A DNA stretch of 64,000 nucleotides, from the IMG/VR virus record IMGVR_UViG_3300047325_000150; one strand, given 5' to 3'. The notes under the pieces are model-generated. The model made no database searches. It had not been told where the DNA came from and was given only the letters and a program-made list of their open reading frames with translations. The number at the start of each line of letters is the position of its first letter. The stretch's first letter is position 1. Made by a program: the position numbers and the translations under genes. Shown piece by piece: positions 2,926-59,197 of the stretch. This DNA comes from a virus.

Positions 2926-3531
2926 ATGAAATTAAATGAGCTAAATTCATCTCTGTTATCACCAATAAAAACTGCAACGAAAGATAAGTTGCCAAACAAT
3001 GTTGCTATAGATTCAATAAAAGGAACTTATAGTAGATTATTAACCGATAATGGATGGAAAAGAGTAAGCAGCGGTTTATATGCAAATATATATTCAATTG
3101 ACGGTTACCAATGGTATTTAAAGATATTTGAATCTCGGGATGTATGCTATAAATCATTCGTTGAATTCGTAAAAGAAAATCCTAATAAACACTTTCCTAA
3201 ATTTAGAGGTAGTATTGTTCAATTAAACAATAAATTTTCAGCTATTAGAGTAGAGCCTCTTCAATTATTAGATGGAAAAGAAGCTAACAATTATTACAAA
3301 TATGGATTACTGTTAAATAATTTCGAAGGAGATTTTACTGGTGTAAATCCAATTATTAATGGTATGCCAGTAAAGAAATTTGAAAAAGAACATGCATCGA
3401 TATGTGATGCAATTAAACTATTGCATTTTAACTTTGCTACAACTAAATGTCATTATGATATGCATATGGATAATATAATGAGTCGAAATGGTGTTCCGGT
3501 TATAATTGATCCATATAGTACAGGTACGTAA
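2926..3531 (+). CDS. small protein-kinase-like fold protein (APH/atypical kinase-like)
   Basis: Gly-rich start and WYLKIF (beta3 Lys). Catalytic-loop-like HYDMHMDNIM followed by IIDP. Confidence 0.4.
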   Translation: MKLNELNSSLLSPIKTATKDKLPNNVAIDSIKGTYSRLLTDNGWKRVSSGLYANIYSIDGYQWYLKIFESRDVCYKSFVEFVKENPNKHFPKFRGSIVQLNNKFSAIRVEPLQLLDGKEANNYYKYGLLLNNFEGDFTGVNPIINGMPVKKFEKEHASICDAIKLLHFNFATTKCHYDMHMDNIMSRNGVPVIIDPYSTGT

Positions 3532-4654: not shown

Positions 4655-4915
4655 ATGGATACATTCGATTCTTTTTTATATAATTTAGAATCAATGATTG
4701 ATAATTTGCACAACATGAGTAAAGATACCAGATATAAAGCAAGAATACAACAGGTAATTTACGATCTTGATGAAGTTTATGCAGATATTTCCGAAGATAT
4801 TGATTTTATTCGAGCGGGTGTATTAGATAAATTTACCGATGCTCATATACAGACCTACAATATATTTGAATCTAAAATAAAACTACTTTTGACTCAGTGG
4901 GAAAAAGATCACTGA
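4655..4915 (+). CDS. hypothetical small protein
   Basis: ORF with upstream AT-rich leader. Confidence 0.3.
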   Translation: MDTFDSFLYNLESMIDNLHNMSKDTRYKARIQQVIYDLDEVYADISEDIDFIRAGVLDKFTDAHIQTYNIFESKIKLLLTQWEKDH

Positions 4916-5931
4916 ACTCTATCAATAAATATTGGAGAGTTAATAACTTCTACTTCAACAATTTTTATTGTTTCACTTCCATCTGTATTAATACGGTCTA
5001 ATTTTATAGTAACAAATTGTCCTACAGTTAATGATTCTTCAAAATTTGTCCATTCTGCAATAGATGAAAACGTTCTACCATTTGCAGAAATTAATTCATC
5101 ATATGGGTTTATAGCTTTGGCAGGACCGGTTGGATCAGGTGACATAACAGCTTCGTTGTTTATAAAAGATAAGGCAATACCTATATAAGGATGTACAATT
5201 TTTTTACCAGATAGCAAATTATCAACAGTTTGTTTTACTATATCACTTTGAATGGCAAAATTTAATCCTATACTACCGTTGCCTCCGTTTGTATTAATAA
5301 AATCGCTCATGCCAACGATGCGACCATTTGCATTAATGACATCGCCTCCACTATTACCTTCATTTATACTTGCATCGGTTTGAATATATCTGGAAAACGG
5401 ATTAATGGTTTGAAAAATTCTCGAAGTATAACTCACAATCCCCTGTGTAATAGTATCAGTTATACCAACAGGATTACCTATAGCCCAGACGGTTTCGCCT
5501 ACTTGCTGTTCGTTACTATTTGCCCAATTTAAATATGTAGGTTTAAATAATGCAATATTTTGTTGATCTGCATTATTAACTTTAATTATTGCAATATCTA
5601 ATACAGGATCATATGCATAAACGCTACATTGAAGAGCTTTTGCAATACCATCTCTTGTAACAAATACTGCTTTTGAATTTTCTACTACATGATAAGCAGT
5701 AACAATATATCCATCTTTATACCAAATGCCAGTACCTAAACCTTCTTCGGTATCTGAAATACTTCGTACTGTTATCGTTGAATCTAATAATTTTGTATAA
5801 TTTTGAGTTAAGTAACTTTCAGTTACTGGTTTTATTGGGGGATTTAAATAATTATATAATCTGTAGCAGGCTACATTGTTTAAAACAAGTAATAAAAGAA
5901 AACCAAGGCTGAGTAATGCATATTTTCTCAT
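4909..5931 (-). CDS. secreted trypsin-like (S1/HtrA-type) serine protease
   Basis: N-terminal signal/TM segment. Catalytic triad contexts TAYHVV (His), DIAIIKV (Asp) and GNSGGDV (Ser). Confidence 0.8.
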   Translation of the reverse strand: MRKYALLSLGFLLLLVLNNVACYRLYNYLNPPIKPVTESYLTQNYTKLLDSTITVRSISDTEEGLGTGIWYKDGYIVTAYHVVENSKAVFVTRDGIAKALQCSVYAYDPVLDIAIIKVNNADQQNIALFKPTYLNWANSNEQQVGETVWAIGNPVGITDTITQGIVSYTSRIFQTINPFSRYIQTDASINEGNSGGDVINANGRIVGMSDFINTNGGNGSIGLNFAIQSDIVKQTVDNLLSGKKIVHPYIGIALSFINNEAVMSPDPTGPAKAINPYDELISANGRTFSSIAEWTNFEESLTVGQFVTIKLDRINTDGSETIKIVEVEVINSPIFIDRVQ

Positions 5932-6016
5932 TGAGATTCCTAAATTAAGTGCTTACTTTATTTATTGAATTATCTACCTATTTATATAATAAATAAATCA
6001 TCAAGGAATTTTATTA

Positions 6017-6805
6017 ATGAAGTTATTTCTAAATCAAGATTATAAAATAGATTTTAAGAACATTTTTTTCGTATATTTGGTATATTTATTGGGTGTTGTA
6101 TCTACTCTATTTTTTTCGTGGCAATTTGGATTTATAAACATTGCTTTTCATTATGATGAATCGTATTTTACATTGTTAATTTCTGCATTGTATGGTATTT
6201 TTGAAACTGTGTGCGGAATTAAAATATACCAATTAAGCAAAACTATTATTAAAGCAAAAAAACATCTGTGGTTGATGAGACAAATGAAAAACTTGACAGT
6301 ATTTCAACGAAACGATGTAGTATTTTACGGAGATGGTCATCAATTAGAATATGAAATTGAGGATGGTTATTTGCGTAAACATATTCTAGATTTACTTAAT
6401 AAAAAAGCCGCATCTGGTAAGAAAATTACTAACAAGACATTATTGTCAACCGTTTCATCTACAGTGGTAGAAAAGCATAATATTGCATATACATTTACCG
6501 AAGTTTTGATCTGGCTAGGATTGATTGGTACAATTTTAGGCATAATTCTTACTTTCTATCCGTTTATAACGGGTACAGTGATTATTGATGCAAATAATGC
6601 GCAGCATACTCTTGCAATAATATTTAAGGGTGTAGGAAGTGCGTTTTTTCCAAGCATAGTTGCTGCAATTTATAGTTTATTTTTGAAAGTAAGTGATTTT
6701 ATATTAATTAAAGGCAGTAATGAATTAGTTACTTTGATAAGCGATGGAAGTGATATCACAATATCACCAACAATAAACAATCCGGGTGTTCGTAAAAATT
6801 TATGA
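6017..6805 (+). CDS. MotA/TolQ/ExbB-like multi-pass membrane protein
   Basis: Several TM helices. LIWLGLIGTILGII resembles the conserved LGLLGTVxGI of TolQ/ExbB. Confidence 0.45.
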   Translation: MKLFLNQDYKIDFKNIFFVYLVYLLGVVSTLFFSWQFGFINIAFHYDESYFTLLISALYGIFETVCGIKIYQLSKTIIKAKKHLWLMRQMKNLTVFQRNDVVFYGDGHQLEYEIEDGYLRKHILDLLNKKAASGKKITNKTLLSTVSSTVVEKHNIAYTFTEVLIWLGLIGTILGIILTFYPFITGTVIIDANNAQHTLAIIFKGVGSAFFPSIVAAIYSLFLKVSDFILIKGSNELVTLISDGSDITISPTINNPGVRKNL

Positions 6806-7464
6806 GACAACGAGAGAAACATTCAACTTTAGCCTATTTAAATTTTGCTTTCATTTGGGGCAAAAGTTTATTGGCTATTTTAGTTGTAATGTTTGCGTTT
6901 ATTGCTGTAAAAAATATAAGTCCGATAAAACCTAATGCACAAATAGAAATTATACTAACTTGGGATGATAATAGTAAAAACGATATAGATCTTTGGGTAA
7001 ATCCTCCAGATAACAAACCAGTCTATTATGGCAATAGAGAATCAGAAGGCGGACTAGTATCATTAGATAGAGATGATTTGGGAATCAATGACCAAACAAT
7101 TTTAAATGGTAATATAATTGATGCTACAGCGCGGGACGAAATTGTAAGTATTCGCGGTCCAGTCACCGGACACTACTCAGTTGTAGCTAATTTATATACA
7201 TACCGACAAGAATCTGGTTTACAAGTTGGCGATACATTACCTATTCCAATACATGTTAAAATACAAATTGTTCAACTTACCCCTTGTAACGGAATTGTTT
7301 ATACTGCAACAAATATAATTACTTTAAATAATCAAGAATTATTTTTAGTAAATTTTGATTTAAATTCAGTTGGCACAATTACCAATATAGATAATCAGCA
7401 TCCATTTAGTGTAATGAGTTTAGCAGCAAGTACAAGTACTTTTGTATCGGATGAATTGCAATGA
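6802..7464 (+). CDS. single-pass membrane-anchored protein with a 190-aa extracytoplasmic domain
   Basis: N-terminal TM helix, then a soluble domain. Start overlaps the previous stop (ATGA). Confidence 0.4.
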   Translation: MRQREKHSTLAYLNFAFIWGKSLLAILVVMFAFIAVKNISPIKPNAQIEIILTWDDNSKNDIDLWVNPPDNKPVYYGNRESEGGLVSLDRDDLGINDQTILNGNIIDATARDEIVSIRGPVTGHYSVVANLYTYRQESGLQVGDTLPIPIHVKIQIVQLTPCNGIVYTATNIITLNNQELFLVNFDLNSVGTITNIDNQHPFSVMSLAASTSTFVSDELQ

Positions 7465-7994
7465 TAATATTAATGTTTGCGGTTTTTGTACTTATGGTTC
7501 TTATTATAAGTTGTGTAATATATAGTTCTCCAGTCAAAAATTACATCAAATATCTATCTCTTATTCTTATGTTTGCAGTATTGTTTTCAAATTGGTATTA
7601 CGATCAAAGTATTGCAGGATATGCAACACCGCAAATATTACCGACACAATTTCAATTAATTTGGGGTCAAGAAAATCAACATACTTCTATCGAGCTATGG
7701 CTTTATGCAAAACAAGGAAATTCATTTTCAACCCAATCTAGATTATACACCATGCCATGGAGTATGAAAATGGCACAAACATTATCTTCTGCAAAAAAAT
7801 CATTGGCTGATGGTATTCCGGTATTCATGGGTAAACCAAACCAAGGTAAATCCGGTAAAAAATCTTCCGGGGGCATGTTTGGAAAATTTAAAGGTAAAGT
7901 AGTTTCTGCAATTTCTCAAATATACAATGGTATGAATAGTTCTGGAGATGAACTGCAAATAATTAAGAATCCCATAGACGAACCAACAAAATAA
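7461..7994 (+). CDS. membrane protein with a Lys/Gly-rich C-terminal tail
   Basis: Two N-terminal TM helices. Overlapping start with the upstream gene. Confidence 0.4.
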   Translation: MIILMFAVFVLMVLIISCVIYSSPVKNYIKYLSLILMFAVLFSNWYYDQSIAGYATPQILPTQFQLIWGQENQHTSIELWLYAKQGNSFSTQSRLYTMPWSMKMAQTLSSAKKSLADGIPVFMGKPNQGKSGKKSSGGMFGKFKGKVVSAISQIYNGMNSSGDELQIIKNPIDEPTK

Positions 7995-8357
7995 TTTAGC
8001 TTATAGCATCTAAACCAATGAGGGGTTGGCCTAATGCGCCGTAATATTTCCCCTTAAATTGCCCAACGCCATCCGCCCGGCTCGTATACCTGTAAATGAA
8101 CCATACATATAGTCTCATTTGGATGAGATTGTCGCAAACAATTAACGGCTGCATATGTAGATGCAGACATTACCTCAATCCAACTATTTTGTAAACGGCT
8201 CCTGAATCTAAATTTTTTCATAATCTTAGTCCAAAGTGTTACAACTTGTGGTATTATAGCATCAATATTTTATGGTGCAAGTTGTATTTTGTATGATTTT
8301 TGGTTGACAAATCGTCTATATATGCTACATTTATGGTAAGATATAGGAGAAACCACG

Positions 8358-8636
8358 ATGCGTTTTGTGATTTATAATACAAACACAGGCAAGAGCAAAG
8401 AGCGATTTACAACCGAAAGAGGTGCCAAAATTGCCCTTGCTGCCCTGCGCCGCAAAGAGGCAAAACGTCCCGAAAAACAGCAAATTGTTTATGCTATTAT
8501 GCCTGAGGATCGTTATGAATCCGAAGTTAATATTATGGTTGAACGTATTAACTTTATGACTGGGAAGCCGTTCATGGAAAAGCTTGATACGTTATATACT
8601 GCAAGCCCGTGCTCAGAAACGTATTGGTCTTCATAA
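8358..8636 (+). CDS. hypothetical protein
   Basis: RBS AGGAGA 8 nt upstream of the ATG. Downstream of a TTGGTTGACA promoter box at 8300-8309. Confidence 0.45.
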   Translation: MRFVIYNTNTGKSKERFTTERGAKIALAALRRKEAKRPEKQQIVYAIMPEDRYESEVNIMVERINFMTGKPFMEKLDTLYTASPCSETYWSS

Positions 8637-8901
8637 AAAATGATAAAAATGCATTTGACATGCTGGTCAAGGGGGTTATATTTCATCACTAATTATGTTC
8701 CGAGGATGGCCTTGGAATCACCTACAAATGAGTATTCTTTCGATTTGAAAGGAGATTCAAACAGTGATTTCGTATGAGGCATTGAAGGAAGCTAGGGAAT
8801 CCACGATATGAGCGCTAAGAAAGAAACTTTTCGCATTAAATCACGAAATGGCATCACGCAAGCGCCGTATTCATCGCGCATAGCAGCACAGAAAGCTGCG
8901 G

Positions 8902-9291
8902 ATGCAGCTAATGCTCAGGCACCAGAACAAGGATGGCACGTGGTGCCTGAGTCTCACTTTGTCAGGGAATCAAACCCATGACCCTACGACGGTCCCGGCT
9001 GGCGCTTGTGGCAGCGTTATCTCTATTGGAGATTTGCAAAATGAGCACCATGCCTTGGGCCTTTTACGTGCAAAACAAAAAGGAAAACATTATATGACTA
9101 CCAAACAAGAAAAACGCGCCATGGCGCGCAAAGCTGAGCGTATGATTAGGCTTGCATATCAGTTAGAACATGAAGCATCCGGTATGCGACAAATAACAGA
9201 TAAATACGCGAGTTGGATCAACAGCATTGCTTCCGATTGCGGTAAATGCGGCCGCTCCATGCTTGATGCGGTAGAGAAAACAGCAGCATGA
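8902..9291 (+). CDS. hypothetical protein in a GC-elevated island
   Basis: ORF inside an approximately 50% GC patch (8640-9950). Cys-containing C-terminus. Alternative start at 9094. Confidence 0.35.
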   Translation: MQLMLRHQNKDGTWCLSLTLSGNQTHDPTTVPAGACGSVISIGDLQNEHHALGLLRAKQKGKHYMTTKQEKRAMARKAERMIRLAYQLEHEASGMRQITDKYASWINSIASDCGKCGRSMLDAVEKTAA

Positions 9292-9926
9292 ACTTTCGAA
9301 AAGTAGGTGCAGTTGCGTTTCCGCAAGCACAAGGCCGTAAAGTCAATATGATGCCTTTTATTATGGGCGATCGTTCCTCAATTCCTGGGGAGTATCATGA
9401 TTATCTCCCGATGATCGAAGCATGTGATGTGCGAGATGAAATTGGAAAGGTTGGTTACCTAACATTTGACGAACAGTTCGTAACCACCGGGACTCATCGT
9501 CGTGGCGGAATCCATACCGAAGGCTGGGGTAATATTGGTTGGGTCGGCGGTTCTTGGGGCGACGGAAGTTTGAATGCCGCAGGCTGGGGTGCGTGGGGAG
9601 GCAATGCTAACGGCGGGCTGTTCATTGCTAATAGTGTTCCGGACAGTTGTGAACTTTATGATGCGAAAATTACCGATACGGTGTTTGGTGGCGCAGTGAG
9701 CGACGAACAAGTGAAAGGTATTTCACCTGTTAGAATGCCGGCAAATACATTGTTTTGGCTGCACGATCGCACTCCCCATGCTTCCCTTCCCGTGAATAAT
9801 ACCGAGCGCCAATTTTTTCGATTGGTTACTAGCGAAGTAAGCGTTTGGTTTGCAAAACATTCGACACTGAATAGATTGGGTGTAGCCCCGTGCTGCAAGA
9901 TCATCGAGATAGATAAATTCCAATAA
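9288..9926 (+). CDS. hypothetical Gly/Trp-rich protein in a GC-elevated island
   Basis: GWGNIGWVGGSWGDG ... GWGAWGGNANGG repeats. ATGA overlap with the upstream ORF. Confidence 0.4.
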   Translation: MNFRKVGAVAFPQAQGRKVNMMPFIMGDRSSIPGEYHDYLPMIEACDVRDEIGKVGYLTFDEQFVTTGTHRRGGIHTEGWGNIGWVGGSWGDGSLNAAGWGAWGGNANGGLFIANSVPDSCELYDAKITDTVFGGAVSDEQVKGISPVRMPANTLFWLHDRTPHASLPVNNTERQFFRLVTSEVSVWFAKHSTLNRLGVAPCCKIIEIDKFQ

Positions 9927-9952
9927 GACAGTAAGATTAAACCGTAAATAGG

Positions 9953-9980
9953 TTTGACATATATCGATCACTGATTATAG
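9953..9980 (+). promoter_or_regulatory. sigma-70-type promoter (TTGACA-16-TATAGT) upstream of the rIIA-like gene
   Basis: -35 TTGACA at 9953-9958 and -10 TATAGT at 9975-9980. Confidence 0.5.
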
Positions 9981-10021
9981 TTAGATAAAGATAACTTTTA
10001 CCAACTATAATCAGGAATCAT

Positions 10022-28458: not shown

Positions 28459-29928
28459 ATGAAAGATAAAACTGCAACTAAAACGTCTAAGAAAGAATCA
28501 CGTCCATATCAAGGAAATGATGCCATTAAGCTTTATTTGCGTGAAATGAGTAAAGCTCCTCTATTAAATCATGCGGCGGAAATTGAAATTTCGCAGACTA
28601 TAGAGAATAGCAAAAAAATAATTGTCGATACTTTATTTGGCATTCCATTTACTGCCAAATTGATTGCATCCTGGATTGAAGATGTAAAAACAGGAAATAC
28701 AGCAGCAGATATTATTTTTGATGTTGATATCTCGGAAGAATCTGGCCCAAGTTTAGAATTTATTAAATCACTTGATTCTGTACATGCGGTTTGTCAAAAA
28801 TATTTTGAAGATACGACAAATGCTGAAGTAAAAGCAGATCTTATCAATCAGTTTAACGAACTGCCGCTTAATCCTAAAGCGTTAGACCAGCTAGTTGAAC
28901 AATTATCTAGTATCAATTATAAATTAATTTCGTGTGATTCGGCTATGATGAAGCTTGCAATGAAGAGCGGAATTAAACGAGAAGAATTTTTGCAACGTTA
29001 TATTGGTAACGAGGATATGGCCTGGCTTGCAAAATGGAATGATCCAAAGTGGCGTGATTTCTCTGATAAGTATAGCAACGAAATACAGAAAATAGTTGAT
29101 GACATTAAGTTACATGCCGATAGCGCAGGACTTAGTGTTACTGAATTACGAGTTGCTACTAAAACATTGAGAACTCAAACAAAAATTAAGGTAGCAGCTA
29201 TTGATAAAATGGTAATATCTAATTTACGATTGGTAGTCAGTGTTGCAAAAAAATATAGTAAAAACAATCAAACTCAATTATTGGATCTTATTCAAGAAGG
29301 CAATATTGGCTTAATTAAAGCTGTTGAAAAATTCAAATGGGAGATGGGTTTTAGATTTAGCACTTATGCAACCTGGTGGATTCGACAAGCAGTTATTAAA
29401 TCGTTGAACGAGGGTAGTAAGACTATTAAAGTGCCGTCGCATGTAATGGATGCGATTAAAAAAATCAATCAAGCAATTGCACATCATGTACATACACATG
29501 GTATAGAACCAACTGATAGCGAATTAGCTGCCTTAGTCGAAATGCCGACAGAAAAAGTAGCAAGAATGCTGCGAGTAGCAAGAGATCCTATTAGCCTTGA
29601 ATCTCCGGTTGGTGGCGATGGCGACCAAGACGAAGGGACCATTGGTCGCTATTTAGAAGATACAAATAGCGAAAATGCGTTTGAGGCTATTAGCGAAGCT
29701 GATAAAGTAAAAGTTGTAAGTGATGCATTACAGACTCTTTCAAGCCGCGAAGAACGTGTATTACGTATGCGATTTGGTATCGGTACTATGGAAGAAAAAA
29801 CTTTAGAAGAAATCGGTAATAAATTTAAAGTAACACGAGAGCGAGTTCGACAAATAGAAACAAAAGCATTAGAGCGGTTAAAACACCCAAATAGACTTAA
29901 AGATTTGGGAGCAGCTCTGAGAGAATAA
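28459..29928 (+). CDS. RpoD-like (group 1/2) sigma-70 family sigma factor
   Basis: Region 2 [37 protein letters not shown], region 3, and region 4.2 [36 protein letters not shown]. Confidence 0.85.
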
Positions 29929-39913: not shown

Positions 39914-40873
39914 TTATGCCATCTCTACTTCGCGTTCCATAACGTCTTCATCACTGTCTTCTTCATCTTCGTTGAACGTAACCAGGTAGTCTAATGCCTG
40001 CGAAGCTTTAGATGCTGCTGACATAATAGCACGACTATCACGTTTCATAACAGTTAGCCAATGTGAAATATAGGGTGCATGGTCCTCACGAATCTCGGGG
40101 ATCAACCCAACCTCGGCCATTAAAAATGCTGCGCCAAGTTCAGCAACAAGCTCTTCCATTGCATATGCTTCGGAACCCCAACGGTCCTGATTAAAATTTC
40201 GATTTAAGCGGGACTCATGACCAGTCCAATGAATGGTTTCATGACCGCGAGTAGAAAGGTATTTTTGCTCAGTAACAAATGAATCACGCTCAGGCAAATG
40301 CACGCAATCATTCTTAGTTGAGTAATATGCTTTGTTGCCGCCATGCTTAACAGACGCTGGAATAGCTTCAAACCATGCAAAACAGTTATTATATGCTGTC
40401 CAATTTTTTGTAACTTCGGATATAATAGTTACTTTTGGCAGTGCAAATTTCTCAGGAAGGCCGTCAATTTGTTCAACATTGAACACATTATAGGTTTTCA
40501 AAAAACTGAACTTGTGTTCGACATCTTGGCCGTTTGCATCTTGTTCGGTTTTTTTGACTAAATTAGTGTAAACGATCTGCGTAGCCTTCTCACCTTTGCG
40601 AACATTTGCACCGTACGAAGTAGCCTGCTTATAAGTCATCCAAAATGGTGACTCATATCCGCAAGCCTTAGCTTTTGACCAAAGAATAAGCACGTTGATA
40701 CCTTTATAGCGTGCTCCGTTGTGGCGCCGTGGGACAGACAGCCCGCTTTTACCAAGCCACGGTTTCGTCCATGGCAATACGCCATTTTCGAGTTCAGCAA
40801 TGATAGAATTTGTAATTTGCTCACAAACGTCACTTGTTTTCATTATCAAAATCCTATTTTTTGATAGTTGCAA
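39914..40873 (-). CDS. ArdC-like antirestriction protein (N-terminal ssDNA-binding domain plus zincin-like metallopeptidase)
   Basis: DUF1738-like N-terminus (ELENGVLPWTKPW, GINVLILW). HExxH-type HETIHWTGHE in the C-terminal half. Confidence 0.65.
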   Translation of the reverse strand: MQLSKNRILIMKTSDVCEQITNSIIAELENGVLPWTKPWLGKSGLSVPRRHNGARYKGINVLILWSKAKACGYESPFWMTYKQATSYGANVRKGEKATQIVYTNLVKKTEQDANGQDVEHKFSFLKTYNVFNVEQIDGLPEKFALPKVTIISEVTKNWTAYNNCFAWFEAIPASVKHGGNKAYYSTKNDCVHLPERDSFVTEQKYLSTRGHETIHWTGHESRLNRNFNQDRWGSEAYAMEELVAELGAAFLMAEVGLIPEIREDHAPYISHWLTVMKRDSRAIMSAASKASQALDYLVTFNEDEEDSDEDVMEREVEMA

Positions 40874-49677: not shown

Positions 49678-50853
49678 ATGAACATACCTGATATTATTTC
49701 GGATGATCTAAAAAATCTTCGATTAATTTTCAATAAAAACGGATTTGATATTCGTTTGGTTGGGGGTGTAGTTCGAGATATGATTGCAGGCGGCAACCCA
49801 ACTGACATTGATCTTTGCACGGATGCTAATCCTTATCAGCAAATTGCTTTGTATGATGCTAATAACGTGCAATATATTGCAACCGGATTAAGTCACGGCA
49901 CCATTACCGTAGTATTAAATCATGTAGCATATGAGATCACTAGTTTAAGGACTGACTCTGATCAAGATGGTCGGCATGCTACGGTCAGTTATACAAAGGA
50001 TTGGCTTGGAGATCTTAGTCGTCGAGATTTTTGTTTTAACGCAATGTCAATGACGTTTGATGGTCAGCTGATTGATCCATTTAATGGCAAACACGATCTT
50101 GAAAATGGTATTGTGAGATTTGTCGGAAATCCGGATGACCGGATAAAAGAAGATTATCTACGAATTATGCGTTGGTTTAGGTTTCTAGGTAGATACGGCG
50201 ACATTGCTCATCCAAATAATTATGATACCATTGCTGCAATCGCCAGAAATGCTAAAGGTTTAAATATCATCAGTGCTGAAAGAATTTGGAAAGAATTTAA
50301 GCAAATTCTTGCACACAATTCGGTCAATGACATATTGCCCTTGTTCAGACCTGCAATGGTAATTGGTCCAATTTTTCAACAATTGCCATATACCAGACGA
50401 GCTTATGCGACTGAATATGTAAACAATGTTATCGCCAGAACTACAAATCCGATTACTCGGTTAATTGCTTTTTATTCAATCCATCGTAACATGGTACGTG
50501 AATACTCTAAAAGATTTAAATGGAGTAAAGATGAAACAAAACTGGCAGAGTTTTTAGCTAACAATCACAGTGCTAATTGGGATCATGGTAGAATGATGGC
50601 TGTTGAAGGATATCCTCGTGAGTTTGTAAAAGAGCTAGCTGTACTTGATAATCGCGATGTATTTCATACTGAGGTATGCAATACATGGGAGGTTCCTGTA
50701 TGTCCAGTAAATGGGGTTGACATTATGGATAAGTTTAATATTTTAGGTCAAGAAGTAGGCATTAAATTAGCGGAAGCTAAGAATTTTTGGGCAGATAATA
50801 ATTATAATGTCAATAAGGAAGAAATTTTTAAATTCTTACAAACAAAAGTTTGA
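49678..50853 (+). CDS. cca: CCA-adding tRNA nucleotidyltransferase (class II NTase / poly(A) polymerase family)
   Basis: Head-domain motif LVGGVVRDMIAGGNPTDIDLCT. RRDF..NAM motif. Typical 391-aa length. Confidence 0.85.
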   Translation: MNIPDIISDDLKNLRLIFNKNGFDIRLVGGVVRDMIAGGNPTDIDLCTDANPYQQIALYDANNVQYIATGLSHGTITVVLNHVAYEITSLRTDSDQDGRHATVSYTKDWLGDLSRRDFCFNAMSMTFDGQLIDPFNGKHDLENGIVRFVGNPDDRIKEDYLRIMRWFRFLGRYGDIAHPNNYDTIAAIARNAKGLNIISAERIWKEFKQILAHNSVNDILPLFRPAMVIGPIFQQLPYTRRAYATEYVNNVIARTTNPITRLIAFYSIHRNMVREYSKRFKWSKDETKLAEFLANNHSANWDHGRMMAVEGYPREFVKELAVLDNRDVFHTEVCNTWEVPVCPVNGVDIMDKFNILGQEVGIKLAEAKNFWADNNYNVNKEEIFKFLQTKV

Positions 50854-53646: not shown

Positions 53647-54507
53647 TTGGAAAGATGTTTTACGTATATTAGATTAGGTACTCAAATGAACAATGATGAA
53701 TTTGGTAAACGTATGAAAAGATTTGAATCATACGAAACACAACGCACATTCCTGCCAGGACTTCCGATTTATGCAAGATTAGACGGGCGCGGATTCTCTG
53801 TATTCACTAAAGGTATGGAAAAACCGTATGATGAAAGACTGTCTAAATTAATGAGTGCGACAACAAAGCATCTTGTTGAAAAAACTCATGCCAAATTTGG
53901 GTATTCCCAAAGCGATGAAATCTCTCTCATATTTAATAATGACGATATTCTCGGAGATATATTCTTTGCTAGAAAAATATTCAAGCTTACTAGTGTGTTA
54001 GCGAGCATGGCGACTGCTTATTTCATGTTAAATATACGCAATTACTTTGACGAAGAAAGTGCAAACTATGAGTCAAGGTTACCGCATTTCGATGCAAGGG
54101 TAATTCAATTTCCATCTAAAATCGAAGCATCAAATATGGTACTTTGGCGTACAATAGATGCTAATAGAAATGCAATAAGTATGGCGGCTCAATCAAAATT
54201 TTCACATAAAAGCTTAAAGGGTGTGTCTAGTTTGCAAATGAAAGAAAAATTACTTAAATTTGCGGGAATTAACTTTGATGAATACCCTATGCATTTTAAG
54301 CAAGGCGTTTTCTTTCATCGAGTCCTAAAAGAAAAAACACTATCACCCGAAGTGTTGGCGTTAATTCCTGAACATGAACGAGCTGAGGCTGCGTTGAAAA
54401 CTTATACTAGATCAAAAGTTGAAGAAATTCAAATGCCAATGTTTCATACTGTGTCAAATAAAGATGGTGTAATATTTAATGCCGAACCCCCTACACTTTT
54501 TAATTGA
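53647..54507 (+). CDS. Thg1-like protein (tRNA-His guanylyltransferase / 3'-5' RNA polymerase family)
   Basis: Signature ARLDGRGFSVFTKG and YSQSDEISLIF motifs. Likely real start at the internal Met (MNNDEFGKRMKRF, 53689). Confidence 0.8.
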   Translation: MERCFTYIRLGTQMNNDEFGKRMKRFESYETQRTFLPGLPIYARLDGRGFSVFTKGMEKPYDERLSKLMSATTKHLVEKTHAKFGYSQSDEISLIFNNDDILGDIFFARKIFKLTSVLASMATAYFMLNIRNYFDEESANYESRLPHFDARVIQFPSKIEASNMVLWRTIDANRNAISMAAQSKFSHKSLKGVSSLQMKEKLLKFAGINFDEYPMHFKQGVFFHRVLKEKTLSPEVLALIPEHERAEAALKTYTRSKVEEIQMPMFHTVSNKDGVIFNAEPPTLFN

Positions 54508-56713: not shown

Positions 56714-56788
56714 TGCCCAGTAGATCAATGGTAGATCAAATGACTTTGAATCATTAGGTTCCTCGTTCGAGTCGAGGCTGGGCATCCA
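56714..56788 (+). tRNA. tRNA-Gln (TTG), CCA encoded
   Basis: U1:A72 acceptor TGCCCAG/CTGGGCA. D stem GATC/GATC. Anticodon arm AATGA-CTTTGAA-TCATT. T arm CCTCG-TTCGAGT-CGAGG. Confidence 0.8.
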
Positions 56789-57309
56789 ATATATTCAATG
56801 GGTTAAACCCATTCTTTAATTCTTTTTAATAGTTCTTGATATGTAATATCACTTTTGCCGCTTTTTTGTGCGTTTTCTGGCAATTTGCTGGATGTGATAT
56901 ATGATTTGAATCATATCCGTTATACCAAGCATCGGCTTTACTAATAATATGATCTTTAACTAGTGCATTTGAATTTGAATTCCAAGTTGGATGATATAAT
57001 CCAACTGTATGAAAGTTTTCATACCCAGGTACAAGTTAATATATTGAAGATATAAATAAGATGGGGTTGCACTGTTTGAATGCGGCATTGAATGCAGAGA
57101 ATAAGTTCTGCAGCCTAGGTAATTGATCTTCTCCGGGACTTGCTGAAATACGCCCCCGGAGAAGTAATTACGCCTCCAAAACATATATAGTGATGTACGG
57201 GTTTTGTAAACCTGAAAATCCGGCGCAAGTCCGGATGGAGGCTCCAGTTTTAAGCCGACGTAGGCCAATGGTAGAGTCACGATTCTTTTACCGGGTACCA
57301 AGTTAACAT

Positions 57310-57387
57310 GTCCTTGTAGCGCAATTGGTAGGAGGCAACTGACTTAAGATCAGAACAGTGCGAGTTCGAATCTCGCCAAGGACACCA
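57310..57387 (+). tRNA. tRNA with Leu-reading anticodon TAA, short variable arm, weak D stem; CCA encoded
   Basis: Acceptor GTCCTTG/CAAGGAC, A73. T arm GCGAG-TTCGAAT-CTCGC. Anticodon stem CTGA/TCAG with loop CTTAAGA. D stem only GC/GC plus two mismatches. Confidence 0.5.
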
Positions 57388-57396
57388 AATATATAT

Positions 57397-57473
57397 GCCA
57401 CTGTAGTGCAACGGTAGGAGACAGCAGTTTTAGAAACTGTACAGTGCTGGTTCGAATCCAGTCAGTGGCACCA
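57397..57473 (+). tRNA. tRNA with Leu-reading anticodon TAG, short variable arm; CCA encoded
   Basis: Acceptor GCCACTG/CAGTGGC, A73. T arm GCTGG-TTCGAAT-CCAGT. Anticodon arm GCAGT-TTTAGAA-ACTGT. Confidence 0.55.
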
Positions 57474-58190
57474 AATATATGCCCATATATATAGATTTTA
57501 CGATAATATTAATGTTAGAAAATTTTGTAGTAATTATAGCAAAGTTGTGCTGGGAGCTTAAAGATGAATTTTTGGTAATTTCTAGATAGAAATGCATCTG
57601 GTATTTTTATAACAATTATTATTAACGGTGAAAAAGAAAAAGAGTTTACTTTTGAAGACATTCGAACTGCACAAGATGCAGTTCAAAAAAGCTTTCCCAA
57701 TATTGATTATAATTGGGATGCAGACGAAGAAGGTTTAAATTATATACTTGATTTTCTTTATGCAGGTGATGAATACCATGCAGAAGTGCAAGCAACAAAC
57801 GTTGTTGAGTATAAATTAGATCATCGTAAAATCTAAATAGACTGCGGAGGGGTGACGAGTGTTCCTGTAAAGGAATGGGTCACAGTTTTGTATAAGACGT
57901 ATTTTTAACAAAACCTTGCTATTCTGTAGGGTAGAAGTTGGTTAGTTAAAGATTAAAGTAGGATTTGATCCTTCCATCTTATACATTAAAATTAATGGGC
58001 CATTAGTGCTAATAGTAAAACACTGGTTTTGCAATCCGGAGTCAGCGGGGCGGTACCGCTATGGTCCATAAAATTTTAGGTAAATTACGTTCACCAGCAT
58101 TCCAAAGTAAAATTCGAGTTTTTATGGGGCATGGGCAGGATTCAAACAGTGCAACGTCGGTGCAAATCCGTCCTGCGACGCCAATATAAA

Positions 58191-58266
58191 GCCTTGTTAG
58201 CCGAATGGTTAAGGCAACTCACTCGTAATGAGTAGATTGGGAGTTCGATTCTCTCACAAGGCACCA
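58191..58266 (+). tRNA. tRNA-Thr (CGT), CCA encoded
   Basis: G1-C72 and C2-G71 acceptor GCCTTGT/ACAAGGC. Anticodon arm ACTCA-CTCGTAA-TGAGT. T arm GGGAG-TTCGATT-CTCTC. Confidence 0.8.
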
Positions 58267-58277
58267 ATAAAAATTTT

Positions 58278-58358
58278 GCTCGTGTAGGCTATTTGGTATC
58301 GCCGGTGAACTTAAAATTCATGTCGTTTTTGCTGGTTCGACTCCAGTCACGAGCACCA
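58278..58358 (+). tRNA. tRNA with Leu-reading anticodon TAA and a 9-nt unpaired variable region; CCA encoded
   Basis: Acceptor GCTCGTG/CACGAGC, A73. Anticodon arm GTGAA-CTTAAAA-TTCAT. T arm GCTGG-TTCGACT-CCAGT. Confidence 0.55.
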
Positions 58359-58365
58359 CAGTAAT

Positions 58366-58444
58366 GCCCAAGTATGCAAATTGGTAAAGCAGCAATTCTC
58401 AAAAAGTTGTGATTTTGACGGTTCGAGTCCGTCGTTGGGCACCA
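58366..58444 (+). tRNA. tRNA with Leu-reading anticodon CAA, 7-nt variable region; CCA encoded
   Basis: Acceptor GCCCAAG/GTTGGGC (one G-G mismatch at 7:66), A73. Anticodon arm CAATT-CTCAAAA-AGTTG. T arm GACGG-TTCGAGT-CCGTC. Confidence 0.55.
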
Positions 58445-58449
58445 AGTTT

Positions 58450-58565
58450 AAAGGATCTTTACAGCATATAATTTGCCTTCCAAGCCGAGAGTGCGGGTTC
58501 GATTCCCGCTTTCCCTACAATGAGGGGAAATAGTTTAATGGTAGAACACGTAAAAAGTAGATCCT
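58450..58565 (+). other. permuted/split tRNA-like locus 1 (3' half followed by its complementary 5' half)
   Basis: Order: AAAGGATCT, 34 nt, T arm GCGGG-TTCGATT-CCCGC, acceptor-3' TTTCCCT, A, CAA, tga, acceptor-5' GGGGAAA, TA, D arm GTTT-AATGGTA-GAAC, then AGATCCT. Confidence 0.45.
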
Positions 58566-58689
58566 GTTTTTTGATATGGTATAGACGTAACTCAGAGAAA
58601 GAGTTGACGCTCAGAAGCAGTGTCGATGGTTAAAGTCCTTCCATCTATGGACATGTTATGAAAAGAAAAAGTTGAGTTGCTCTCAACAT

Positions 58690-58760
58690 TGGGGAATTCG
58701 TATAATGGTATTACGGTAGCTTTGCAAGCTACTCACAGCGGTCCGATTCCGCTATTCTCC
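58690..58760 (+). tRNA. tRNA-Ala (TGC), no encoded CCA
   Basis: Acceptor GGGGAAT/ATTCTCC with the G3-U70 Ala identity pair. Anticodon arm GTAGC-TTTGCAA-GCTAC. T arm AGCGG-TCCGATT-CCGCT. Confidence 0.8.
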
Positions 58761-58998
58761 CCTAATTTTATAAAATGATCAATTCAGCATTAAACAATGA
58801 TGGATAAATTTTATTGCTCAAACGAAAACGACATTCTTTCCTATATAGTTTTGATTCATGAAATAAATTCAATGAACGACATTGTATATCACATCTATTT
58901 TGATTTCTATATTTTACTAAACCCAGGAAATCCTTGCAAGATTTTAGCTTGATCGGTTTGAGTCCGATATGTTCCATTATCTATTTTGTAGGCTTTGT

Positions 58999-59077
58999 CA
59001 GCCATTGGGGAAGTCTGGTCGTTCCCGCCTGTTTTGGAAACAGGAGATTTACGTTGGTTCAAATCCAACATGGCTGA
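58999..59077 (+). tRNA. tRNA-Pro (TGG), no encoded CCA
   Basis: C1-G72 acceptor CAGCCAT/ATGGCTG. D stem GGGA/TCCC with an 11-nt D loop. Anticodon arm CCTGT-TTTGGAA-ACAGG. T arm GTTGG-TTCAAAT-CCAAC. Confidence 0.7.
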
Positions 59078-59099
59078 CAAAACCTACGAAATAAAGTTT

Positions 59100-59194
59100 A
59101 AGGATCTGTTACAGCAAAAATGAAACTTTATTGGTTCAAATCCAATTTTCTCCGCCATTTATGGGGAAAATGCTCGTGGTAGAGCATAGATCCT
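59100..59194 (+). other. permuted/split tRNA-like locus 2
   Basis: Order: AAGGATCT, 22 nt, T arm ATTGG-TTCAAAT-CCAAT, acceptor-3' TTTCTCC, G, CCA, tttat, acceptor-5' GGGGAAA, AT, D arm GCTC-GTGGTA-GAGC, then AGATCCT. Confidence 0.45.
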
Positions 59195-59197
59195 GTT

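Follow-up and report, generated by a model that had tools for sequence, protein, structure and literature searches.

Introduction

Do the three overlapping membrane-protein genes at positions 6017-7994 of the viral record IMGVR_UViG_3300047325_000150 encode an ion-driven motor, and on which side of the membrane would such a motor deliver its work? The whole stretch of 64,000 nucleotides analysed is referred to here as the window, and the three genes, in their order on the plus strand, as p1, p2 and p3. An initial annotation, made from the nucleotide sequence alone, had described them as a membrane module led by a MotA/TolQ/ExbB-like channel protein. The module is a phage-specific branch of the 5:2 motor superfamily with novel partner domains and, in the window, a rewired charge network. 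It is best read as a phage-specific, Tol/Ton-like, ion-driven envelope motor with periplasmic output, a reading to which a probability of roughly 0.6 is assigned. The module comprises the following open reading frames (ORFs).

6017..6805, plus strand: p1, 262 amino acids; A subunit of the MotA/TolQ/ExbB superfamily with four transmembrane (TM) helices
6802..7464, plus strand: p2, 220 amino acids; B-subunit analogue in the ExbD/TolR/MotB position, with an N-in single-pass TM helix and an extracytoplasmic beta-sandwich
7461..7994, plus strand: p3, 177 amino acids; third subunit, in which an N-terminal hydrophobic hairpin precedes a small conserved domain and a helix, and a Lys/Gly-rich low-complexity tail is followed by a short conserved motif at the C-terminus

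The coordinates and the overlapping stop and start codons given for the three ORFs in the initial annotation agree exactly with the plus strand of the window, and its descriptions of p2 as a single-pass membrane protein with a large external domain and of p3 as a two-TM protein with a Lys/Gly-rich tail are confirmed by the models and hydrophobicity profiles presented below. Both the p1/p2 and the p2/p3 junctions read ATGA, a stop/start overlap of the kind typically associated with translational coupling.

Assignment of p1 to the MotA/TolQ/ExbB superfamily

A word-indexed search with p1 recovered three close homologs only; an exhaustive profile search recovered 192 cluster representatives at E <= 1e-3, mostly of about 250 amino acids and matched from end to end. 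No match to p1 was obtained with tblastn in the GenBank phages, and a single-sequence pattern scan of IMG/VR yielded nothing that could be confirmed. The Pfam family PF01618 was matched by 72 of the 80 p1 family members (best E 1.2e-11), and the family profile matched the solved TolQ (9kpz/8odt) with an E-value of 9e-7, its positions 44-229 aligning with TolQ 21-207 from TM1 to TM3, with additional matches to ZorA, MotA and ExbB. The window protein taken alone scores below threshold, but p1 belongs to the MotA/TolQ/ExbB superfamily because its family matches PF01618 and TolQ.

The AlphaFold (AF2) model of p1, built on the family alignment (predicted local distance difference test score, pLDDT, 91.7; predicted template modelling score, pTM, 0.86), consists of four TM helices, TM2 and TM3 being separated by a cytoplasmic insert of about 85 amino acids; the layout is that of TolQ with one extra N-terminal helix, and the C-terminus lies about 35 residues past TM4. 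The top 50 Foldseek matches of the model were all ExbB, TolQ, ZorA, PomA or MotA chains except that at rank 41, a HAMP-Tsr fusion (probability 0.30); matches to the A subunits of 5:2 motors had probabilities of about 1.0 and TM-scores of up to 0.56. Family profile searches, fold comparison and the conserved gene order described below thus bear out the channel-family assignment made initially for p1. The residues of p1 relevant to ion conduction and to the comparison between sublineages are as follows.

6155..6157, plus strand: Asp47, just before TM2 on the periplasmic side; invariant (80/80 in the family, 70/70 among the syntenic p1 proteins)
6203..6205, plus strand: Glu63 in TM2; signature residue of the sublineage with Asn14 and Lys21 in p2 (NK type), Thr or Ser in modules with Asp at p2 position 14 (Asp type)
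6530..6532, plus strand: Thr172 of LGLIGT in TM3; invariant (80/80), equivalent to the Thr of TolQ GLFGT and to ExbB Thr148
6650..6655, plus strand: Pro212-Ser213 in TM4, replacing the family 'TT'; position 213 is equivalent to TolQ Thr178 and ExbB Thr181

The LGLIGTILGI motif noted in the initial annotation occupies p1 residues 167-176. ExbB Thr148 and Thr181, together with ExbD Asp25, are described as the essential channel residues (PMC12905483). The pore-lining Thr pair is recognisable in p1, with an invariant Thr172 and, at the second site, Ser213 in the window against Thr in most members; among 70 sequences, position 212 is Thr in 62 and Pro in 5, and position 213 is Thr in 65 and Ser in 4, the two being aligned to TolQ 'IATAIG'. 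The trios of more distant p2 homologs include 'mini' p1 proteins of 113-200 amino acids that are almost devoid of the cytoplasmic loop. Two of the p1 homologs, P0002 and P0003, carry discordant automatic names, 'membrane protein YecN with MAPEG domain' and 'biopolymer transport protein ExbB/TolQ'; the former is probably a misannotation.

The p2 protein as candidate B subunit

The p2 protein has a basic N-terminus and one strongly hydrophobic N-terminal segment, and its AF2 model (pLDDT 85) comprises a helix spanning residues 3-37 and an all-beta domain spanning residues 48-197. A total of 585 homologs were identified, none of which carries a Pfam domain; the TerD family of Pfam in particular was not matched by any of 77 p2 members, and neither p2 nor p3 had a match in NCBIfam or PADLOC. 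Two regions of p2 are distinguished.

6841..6864, plus strand: TM motif N14-F-A-F-I-W-G-K21, with Asn at the position of the family TM Asp and Lys at +7, two turns further along the helix
6943..7392, plus strand: TerD-like beta-sandwich, amino acids 48-197, with invariant W54, D61, D63, L88, D91, G94, E113 and R118

In the family, the helix carries the motif S-x-V-A-F-x-D-L-L-F-N, the TM Asp being present in 114 of 121 aligned members; by eye, this motif resembles the '(I/V)-x-P-(F/L)-(I/L)-D-V' of ExbD/TolR. The best match of the p2 N-terminus among PDB structures was a MotB-like ZorB TM chain (8vvi_A), non-significant at E 0.5, with the Asp aligned. A corresponding Asp is described as conserved or essential in MotB, ExbD, TolR and AglQ/S (PMC9389320, PMC12905483). 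The best reading of p2 is that of a B subunit, because of the position of its gene directly after that of the A subunit, its topology with a single N-in TM helix, the conserved TM Asp and the obligatory adjacency to p1. The beta domain is predicted to be periplasmic and probably binds Ca2+.

Distribution and conservation of gene order

In 70 of the 71 distinct loci, p2 is directly preceded on its own strand by a p1-like gene, which is not a chance arrangement and upholds the initial description of the genes as a module; a p3-like gene lies directly downstream of p2 in roughly 60 of the 71. The p1-p2-p3 order is retained, together with a divergent protease gene, in three close relatives of the window. 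Relatives of p2 were found on 376 contigs in IMG/VR, many of them longer than 100 kb and the longest reaching 608 kb, and two pattern scans of 185,579 GTDB genomes, carried out with narrower alignments (A7 and A2), returned no relative. The cultured carriers are exclusively Rhizobium/Sinorhizobium phages (RHph_N3_19, with genes EVB99_065-067; P10VF, with genes P10VF_191-193, and its relatives; and the temperate phage 16-3), in which all module genes are annotated as 'hypothetical'. No match to the region was obtained by megablast among the GenBank phages, a fold search of BFVD returned only uncharacterised proteins, and a literature search found no description of the module; in one study, a phage gene labelled 'ExbB' is given as putatively metabolic. 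The three genes form a conserved module restricted to phages.

Within a single clade of large phages (L006 2559-3035; L007 3731-4414 and 7156-7644; L009 4424-5029 and 7567-8043), the trio lies between a gene for GTP cyclohydrolase I and a PTPS/QueD-like gene, with genes for thymidylate synthase, ClpX, ribosomal protein S21, HSP20 and ClpS nearby. In Rhizobium phage 16-3 (L013, 2667-4659), two additional small genes break up the trio: p039 separates the p1-like p038 from the p2-like p040, and p041 precedes the p3-like p042; a trypsin-like protease gene, p036, is found three genes upstream of the trio.

The p3 protein as third component

Hydrophobicity is very high at residues 2-20 of p3 and less marked in a second segment at about 31-47; the tail is rich in Lys and Gly, and the window protein has no match in Pfam or NCBIfam. 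The set used for comparison consists of the genes directly 3' of p2 across all loci, which encode 77 distinct sequences. Two glycines are nearly invariant among them (G53 in 77/77, G118 in 75/77), and I77 (65), R94 (65), P93 (57), P99 (53), W80 (50) and Y100 (50) are majority residues. The tails are of low complexity and variable length, and many end in a motif of the form hydrophobic-x-hydrophobic...P-x-K. The p3 protein is thus a genuine, conserved, membrane-anchored third component.

Nine of the 77 homologs are fused at their C-termini to a phage lysozyme domain (Phage_lysozyme, PF00959, GH24; E 1e-47). The fusions place the C-terminus of p3 at the cell wall and thereby support a periplasmic orientation. 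The fused proteins, of about 300 amino acids, are encoded at L038, L042, L043, L047, L059, L060, L066, L068 and L069, and the lysozyme domain follows the conserved terminal motif of p3. The window p3 shares with TolA and TonB its place as the third gene of the operon and a long flexible linker, the periplasmic location of which would follow from the lysozyme fusions; the likeness is limited to layout and gene position. A spanin-like role for p3 was also considered and dropped, as no ORF with a lipobox signal was listed within or next to p3.

Charged-residue substitutions in the window sublineage

Asn at p2 position 14 is found in 4 of the 121 aligned members and only in the window clade, these being the window, its identical database copy and two close relatives. 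A p2 motif of the NF(A/S)LTFAK type was further found in the 608-kb contig of IMG/VR and in 12 loci from metagenomes of soil and moss, the latter retrieved via p1 and not via p2. Using motif anchoring for the count, Glu63 of p1 accompanies an NK-type p2 in 12 of 12 paired loci and in none of the 63 Asp-type loci, where Thr or Ser occupies the position. Glu63 is present in 30 of the 80 long p1 proteins, usually along with Pro212. The sequences concerned belong to one lineage, and the co-occurrence may therefore reflect a single event. Asn14, Lys21 and Glu63 are nevertheless strictly retained although the sequences share no more than about 25-35% identity with the window; this points to constraint rather than decay.

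The location of Glu63 suggests a partner for it. Position 63 of p1 aligns with the Ser of 'IASW' in TolQ TM1, within a patch (TolQ Ser28, Ile29 and Trp32) that touches an essential TolA residue, His22, on the outside of the complex and close to the cytoplasm (PMC12215075). The cytoplasmic loop of the p3 hairpin is basic, with K26 and K30 in the window and R/K-x-H-W-x-x-K in the soil clade. Since position 63 lies in the TolQ patch that touches TolA, we infer that Glu63 faces the basic loop of the p3 hairpin rather than Lys21 of p2 inside the pore. A direct Glu63-Lys21 salt bridge of the GldL/GldM kind was not adopted, as Glu63 is situated on a peripheral and not on a pore-lining helix.

The retention of conserved proton-conducting residues, on which the initial annotation had made its assignment depend, is found for the channel Thr of the A subunit (T172, with S213 at the second site) and fails for the B-subunit Asp, which is Asn here. 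As the D22N substitution in MotB is described as a protonation mimic (PMC9389320), the canonical Asp cycle cannot operate in the window locus. Either ion coupling in the NK variant proceeds through a rewired Glu/Lys network or the complex is a non-rotating scaffold.

Probable mechanism and competing explanations

In the mechanism proposed here, p1 would form the ring-shaped A subunit, assumed to be a pentamer by analogy with TolQ, ExbB and MotA. The p2 protein would serve as the B subunit or axle, its N-terminal helix lying inside the ring and its TerD-like head, of the Ca2+-binding type, projecting into the periplasm. The p3 protein would act as a TolA/TonB-like tether anchored in the inner membrane beside the outer p1 helix, its flexible tail and short C-terminal docking motif reaching toward the cell wall or the outer membrane. 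Most phage p1 proteins are almost devoid of a cytoplasmic domain, which indicates that work is delivered on the periplasmic side and argues against a cytoplasmic output of the Mot or Zorya kind. The anatomy of the proteins thus favours an output directed to the periplasm and envelope over a Zorya-like one, the likeliest target being the peptidoglycan or the outer membrane of the infected cell. An envelope role is also suggested by the lysozyme fusions, by the lysis genes near the trio of locus L004, by rIIA and rIIB near that of the window and by the neighbouring HtrA-like protease gene. Our guess at the biological role is that it may consist in the remodelling of peptidoglycan or outer membrane, in upkeep of the envelope during a long infection, or in lysis control.

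The last of these leads to the strongest of the alternatives, in which the complex is a lysis-timing device that responds to the proton-motive force or draws on it, and so holds, positions or releases p3 as a membrane-tethered muramidase or envelope disruptor; the module would then be part of the lysis programme of the phage. The lysozyme fusions of nine p3 homologs agree with such a device, as do the GH19 and lysozyme genes found about 1.4 kb upstream of the L004 trio and, 2 kb downstream of the window trio, rIIA/rIIB, classed by PHROGs as lysis inhibitors. However, most p3 proteins, including that of the window, carry no enzymatic domain, no holin or spanin partner was identified, and in most large phages the trio is found not in a lysis cassette but amid genes of nucleotide metabolism or early type (thymidylate synthase, FolE, PTPS, ClpX). 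A lysis-timing function is considered unlikely.

Superinfection exclusion is possible at rather longer odds, the module then acting as an exclusion factor or a Zorya-like sensor that detects the envelope perturbation caused by a second phage, blocks its entry and protects the infected cell or lysogen. Membrane proteins of early regions are often exclusion factors, some carriers of the module are temperate (16-3, and L004 with an integrase), and p1 has weak matches to ZorA (PADLOC E 1e-4; NCBIfam). Every one of these matches, however, is far below the curated cutoff; p1 ends too soon after TM4 to have the long ZorA-like tail, the mini forms being almost without a cytoplasmic part, p2 has no peptidoglycan-binding domain and no ZorC/D/E-like effectors are encoded nearby. 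A non-motor set, either a viroporin or ion leak or a decoy poisoning the host Tol/Ton systems, with the Asn variant as a deliberately dead stator mimicking protonation in the manner of MotB D22N, is the least probable by a further step, because the NK residues are so strongly conserved as to point to a working charge network, while the Asp is kept in the great majority of p2 proteins and p1 and p2 are only about 11-15% identical to the host TolQR/ExbBD in structural alignments, which makes co-assembly unlikely.

Several observations weigh against the envelope-motor reading itself. The window p1 scores 19.7 bits against PF01618 (E 7e-4), short of the gathering score of 22.9. The p1 family apparently lacks, in an alignment read by eye, the pair of Pro kinks that TolQ, ExbB and MotA share in their last two TM helices (PMC12215075); the TolQ positions P138 and P187 face Leu/Ile in the family consensus, with I165 and F222 at the matching offsets in the window. 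Comparison of p2 with the ExbD, TolR and MotB families gave nothing significant, MotB_plug being matched by 4 of 77 members with a best E-value of 0.0036, and its beta domain has a TerD fold that is neither of the ExbD/TolR type nor OmpA-like. The family has the TM Asp expected of a B subunit and the window locus, with Asn14, does not. In p3, the SHLS motif is absent, a two-segment hairpin taking its place, which in the window is without His, and neither TonB_C nor TolA domain III was matched in searches of Pfam and NCBIfam.

The envelope-motor reading is nonetheless retained, and a wider proposal can be built on it, more tentatively and at somewhat less than even odds. The module would represent an unrecognised, phage-specific family of 5:2-type motors, widespread in large and jumbo phages, with a TerD-like B subunit and a tether resembling TolA, in some cases fused to a lysozyme, the window belonging to a sublineage with an alternative coupling in which a Glu of the A subunit and a Lys of the B subunit stand in for the Asp.

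Genomic context of the module

The source of the window is a large uncultured phage, with rIIA and rIIB just downstream of the module, a sigma-factor-like gene, genes for tRNA-maturation enzymes and 17 tRNA genes. The nearest cultured relatives of its rIIA are those of alphaproteobacterial phages, at about 28-33% identity. Upstream of p1 lie the following features.

4909..5931, minus strand: HtrA/DegP-like serine protease gene, divergent from p1; Trypsin_2 and PDZ domains and an N-terminal hydrophobic anchor
5932..6016: divergent intergenic region between the protease gene and p1; 85 bp, AT-rich, holding the AAGGA site of p1

The AAGGA sequence 5' of p1 is Shine-Dalgarno-like. A scan for promoters and terminators returned a number of sites not above that expected by chance. 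The protease was identified by Trypsin_2 (E 2.6e-25), by PDZ_2 and by the NCBIfam model degP_htrA_DO (E 3e-49). Similar proteases adjoin the module in two loci (L001 and L003) and are loosely linked to it in phage 16-3, where one lies nearby, and in RHph_N3_19, but the other NK-type loci, from soil, and most Asp-type loci have none. The protease was therefore rejected as a core part of the module, its adjacency being confined to the immediate clade of the window.

The region between p3 and rIIA (8000-10000) has a G+C content of 43%, against about 31% in the surrounding region, and contains several small ORFs and a homolog of phrog_8970 (9288-9926); the equivalent slot in the relative L001 is occupied by an HNH endonuclease gene, and the region looks like a variable insertion hot spot. 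A 201-amino-acid ORF at 2926-3531 has a weak match to a PHROG of T7 gp0.7-type protein kinases (phrog_15752, E 3e-5) and a still weaker one to the APH phosphotransferase family. The window further encodes a large sigma-factor-like protein (28459-29928; phrog_351, E 3e-83) and a homolog of an anti-restriction protein (39914-40873; phrog_7245, E 2e-96). The 17 tRNA genes, including five for Leu, three for Thr and two for Gln, form a cluster at 56714-63360, near a tRNA nucleotidyltransferase and a Thg1-like tRNA-His guanylyltransferase (49678-50853; 53647-54507).

Significance

The 5:2 motors reviewed so far power flagella, Ton-dependent uptake, envelope maintenance by Tol-Pal, gliding and type 9 secretion, and Zorya defence, all of them cellular systems. 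If the reading given here is true, viruses would be equipped, through a phage-borne family found on hundreds of viral contigs, with a transducer of proton-motive force of their own that acts on the host envelope, and the interface between phage and host would be of a new class. The family is large and unannotated, and it lends itself to experiment, the Rhizobium and Sinorhizobium phages that carry it being cultured and the module thus open to genetics. The replacement of Asp by Asn, covarying with a new Lys and a new Glu, is a natural experiment on the ion coupling of such motors, and the lysozyme fusions provide a concrete handle on the target, the cell wall.

Comparison with known systems

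The beta domain of p2 has the fold of TerD, a Ca2+-binding beta-sandwich protein of tellurite resistance. TerD proteins are soluble and cytoplasmic, whereas the p2 domain is membrane-anchored and predicted to be periplasmic, and it has no sequence-level match to the TerD families.

With Zorya, the module shares a MotA/ExbB-type A subunit followed by a single-pass B subunit, the sub-threshold matches of p1 to ZorA and the ZorB-like 8vvi_A as the best, non-significant match of the p2 TM helix. It differs from Zorya in that p1 and p2 lack the long cytoplasmic tail of ZorA and the peptidoglycan-binding domain of ZorB, respectively, in that no ZorC/D/E effectors occur among the neighbouring genes and in being phage-borne rather than part of a bacterial defence island.

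The GldL-GldM and PorL-PorM motors, which serve type 9 secretion and gliding, provide a parallel for the NK variant, whose p1 carries a TM Glu and whose p2 lacks the Asp. Glu49 of GldL, on TMH2, is an essential protonatable acid located on the A subunit of a 5:2-type motor, in contact with the GldM TM helix as seen by nuclear magnetic resonance (PMC8986121), and the output of these motors is likewise periplasmic. Unlike the acid of GldL, Glu63 of p1 is carried by the counterpart of TolQ TM1, a helix with a peripheral place in TolAQR structures; no sequence relationship is detectable between the two systems and the periplasmic domains of p2 and GldM are unrelated. The precedent may thus serve as an analogy only, since the geometry differs.

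The module departs from TolQ-TolR-TolA and ExbB-ExbD-TonB in the extra N-terminal TM helix of p1, which gives four TM helices as in MotA, and in the apparent loss of the two Pro kinks; in the TerD-like beta-sandwich that forms the periplasmic domain of p2; in the two-helix hairpin of p3, with neither SHLS nor a TonB/TolA C-terminal domain; in its occurrence in phages and not in the GTDB bacterial genomes scanned; and, in the window, in the change from Asp to Asn. It agrees with them in the order of the genes, an A subunit being followed by a single-pass B subunit and a membrane-anchored third protein. The alignment of p1 with TolQ extends over TM1 to TM3 and includes the retained Thr of GLxGT, most p2 proteins have, as in TolR and ExbD, one N-in TM helix with an Asp close to its cytoplasmic end, and p3 has the anchor-linker-terminal motif layout of TolA and TonB. 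As in the Tol and Ton systems, the output of the module is expected to be periplasmic.

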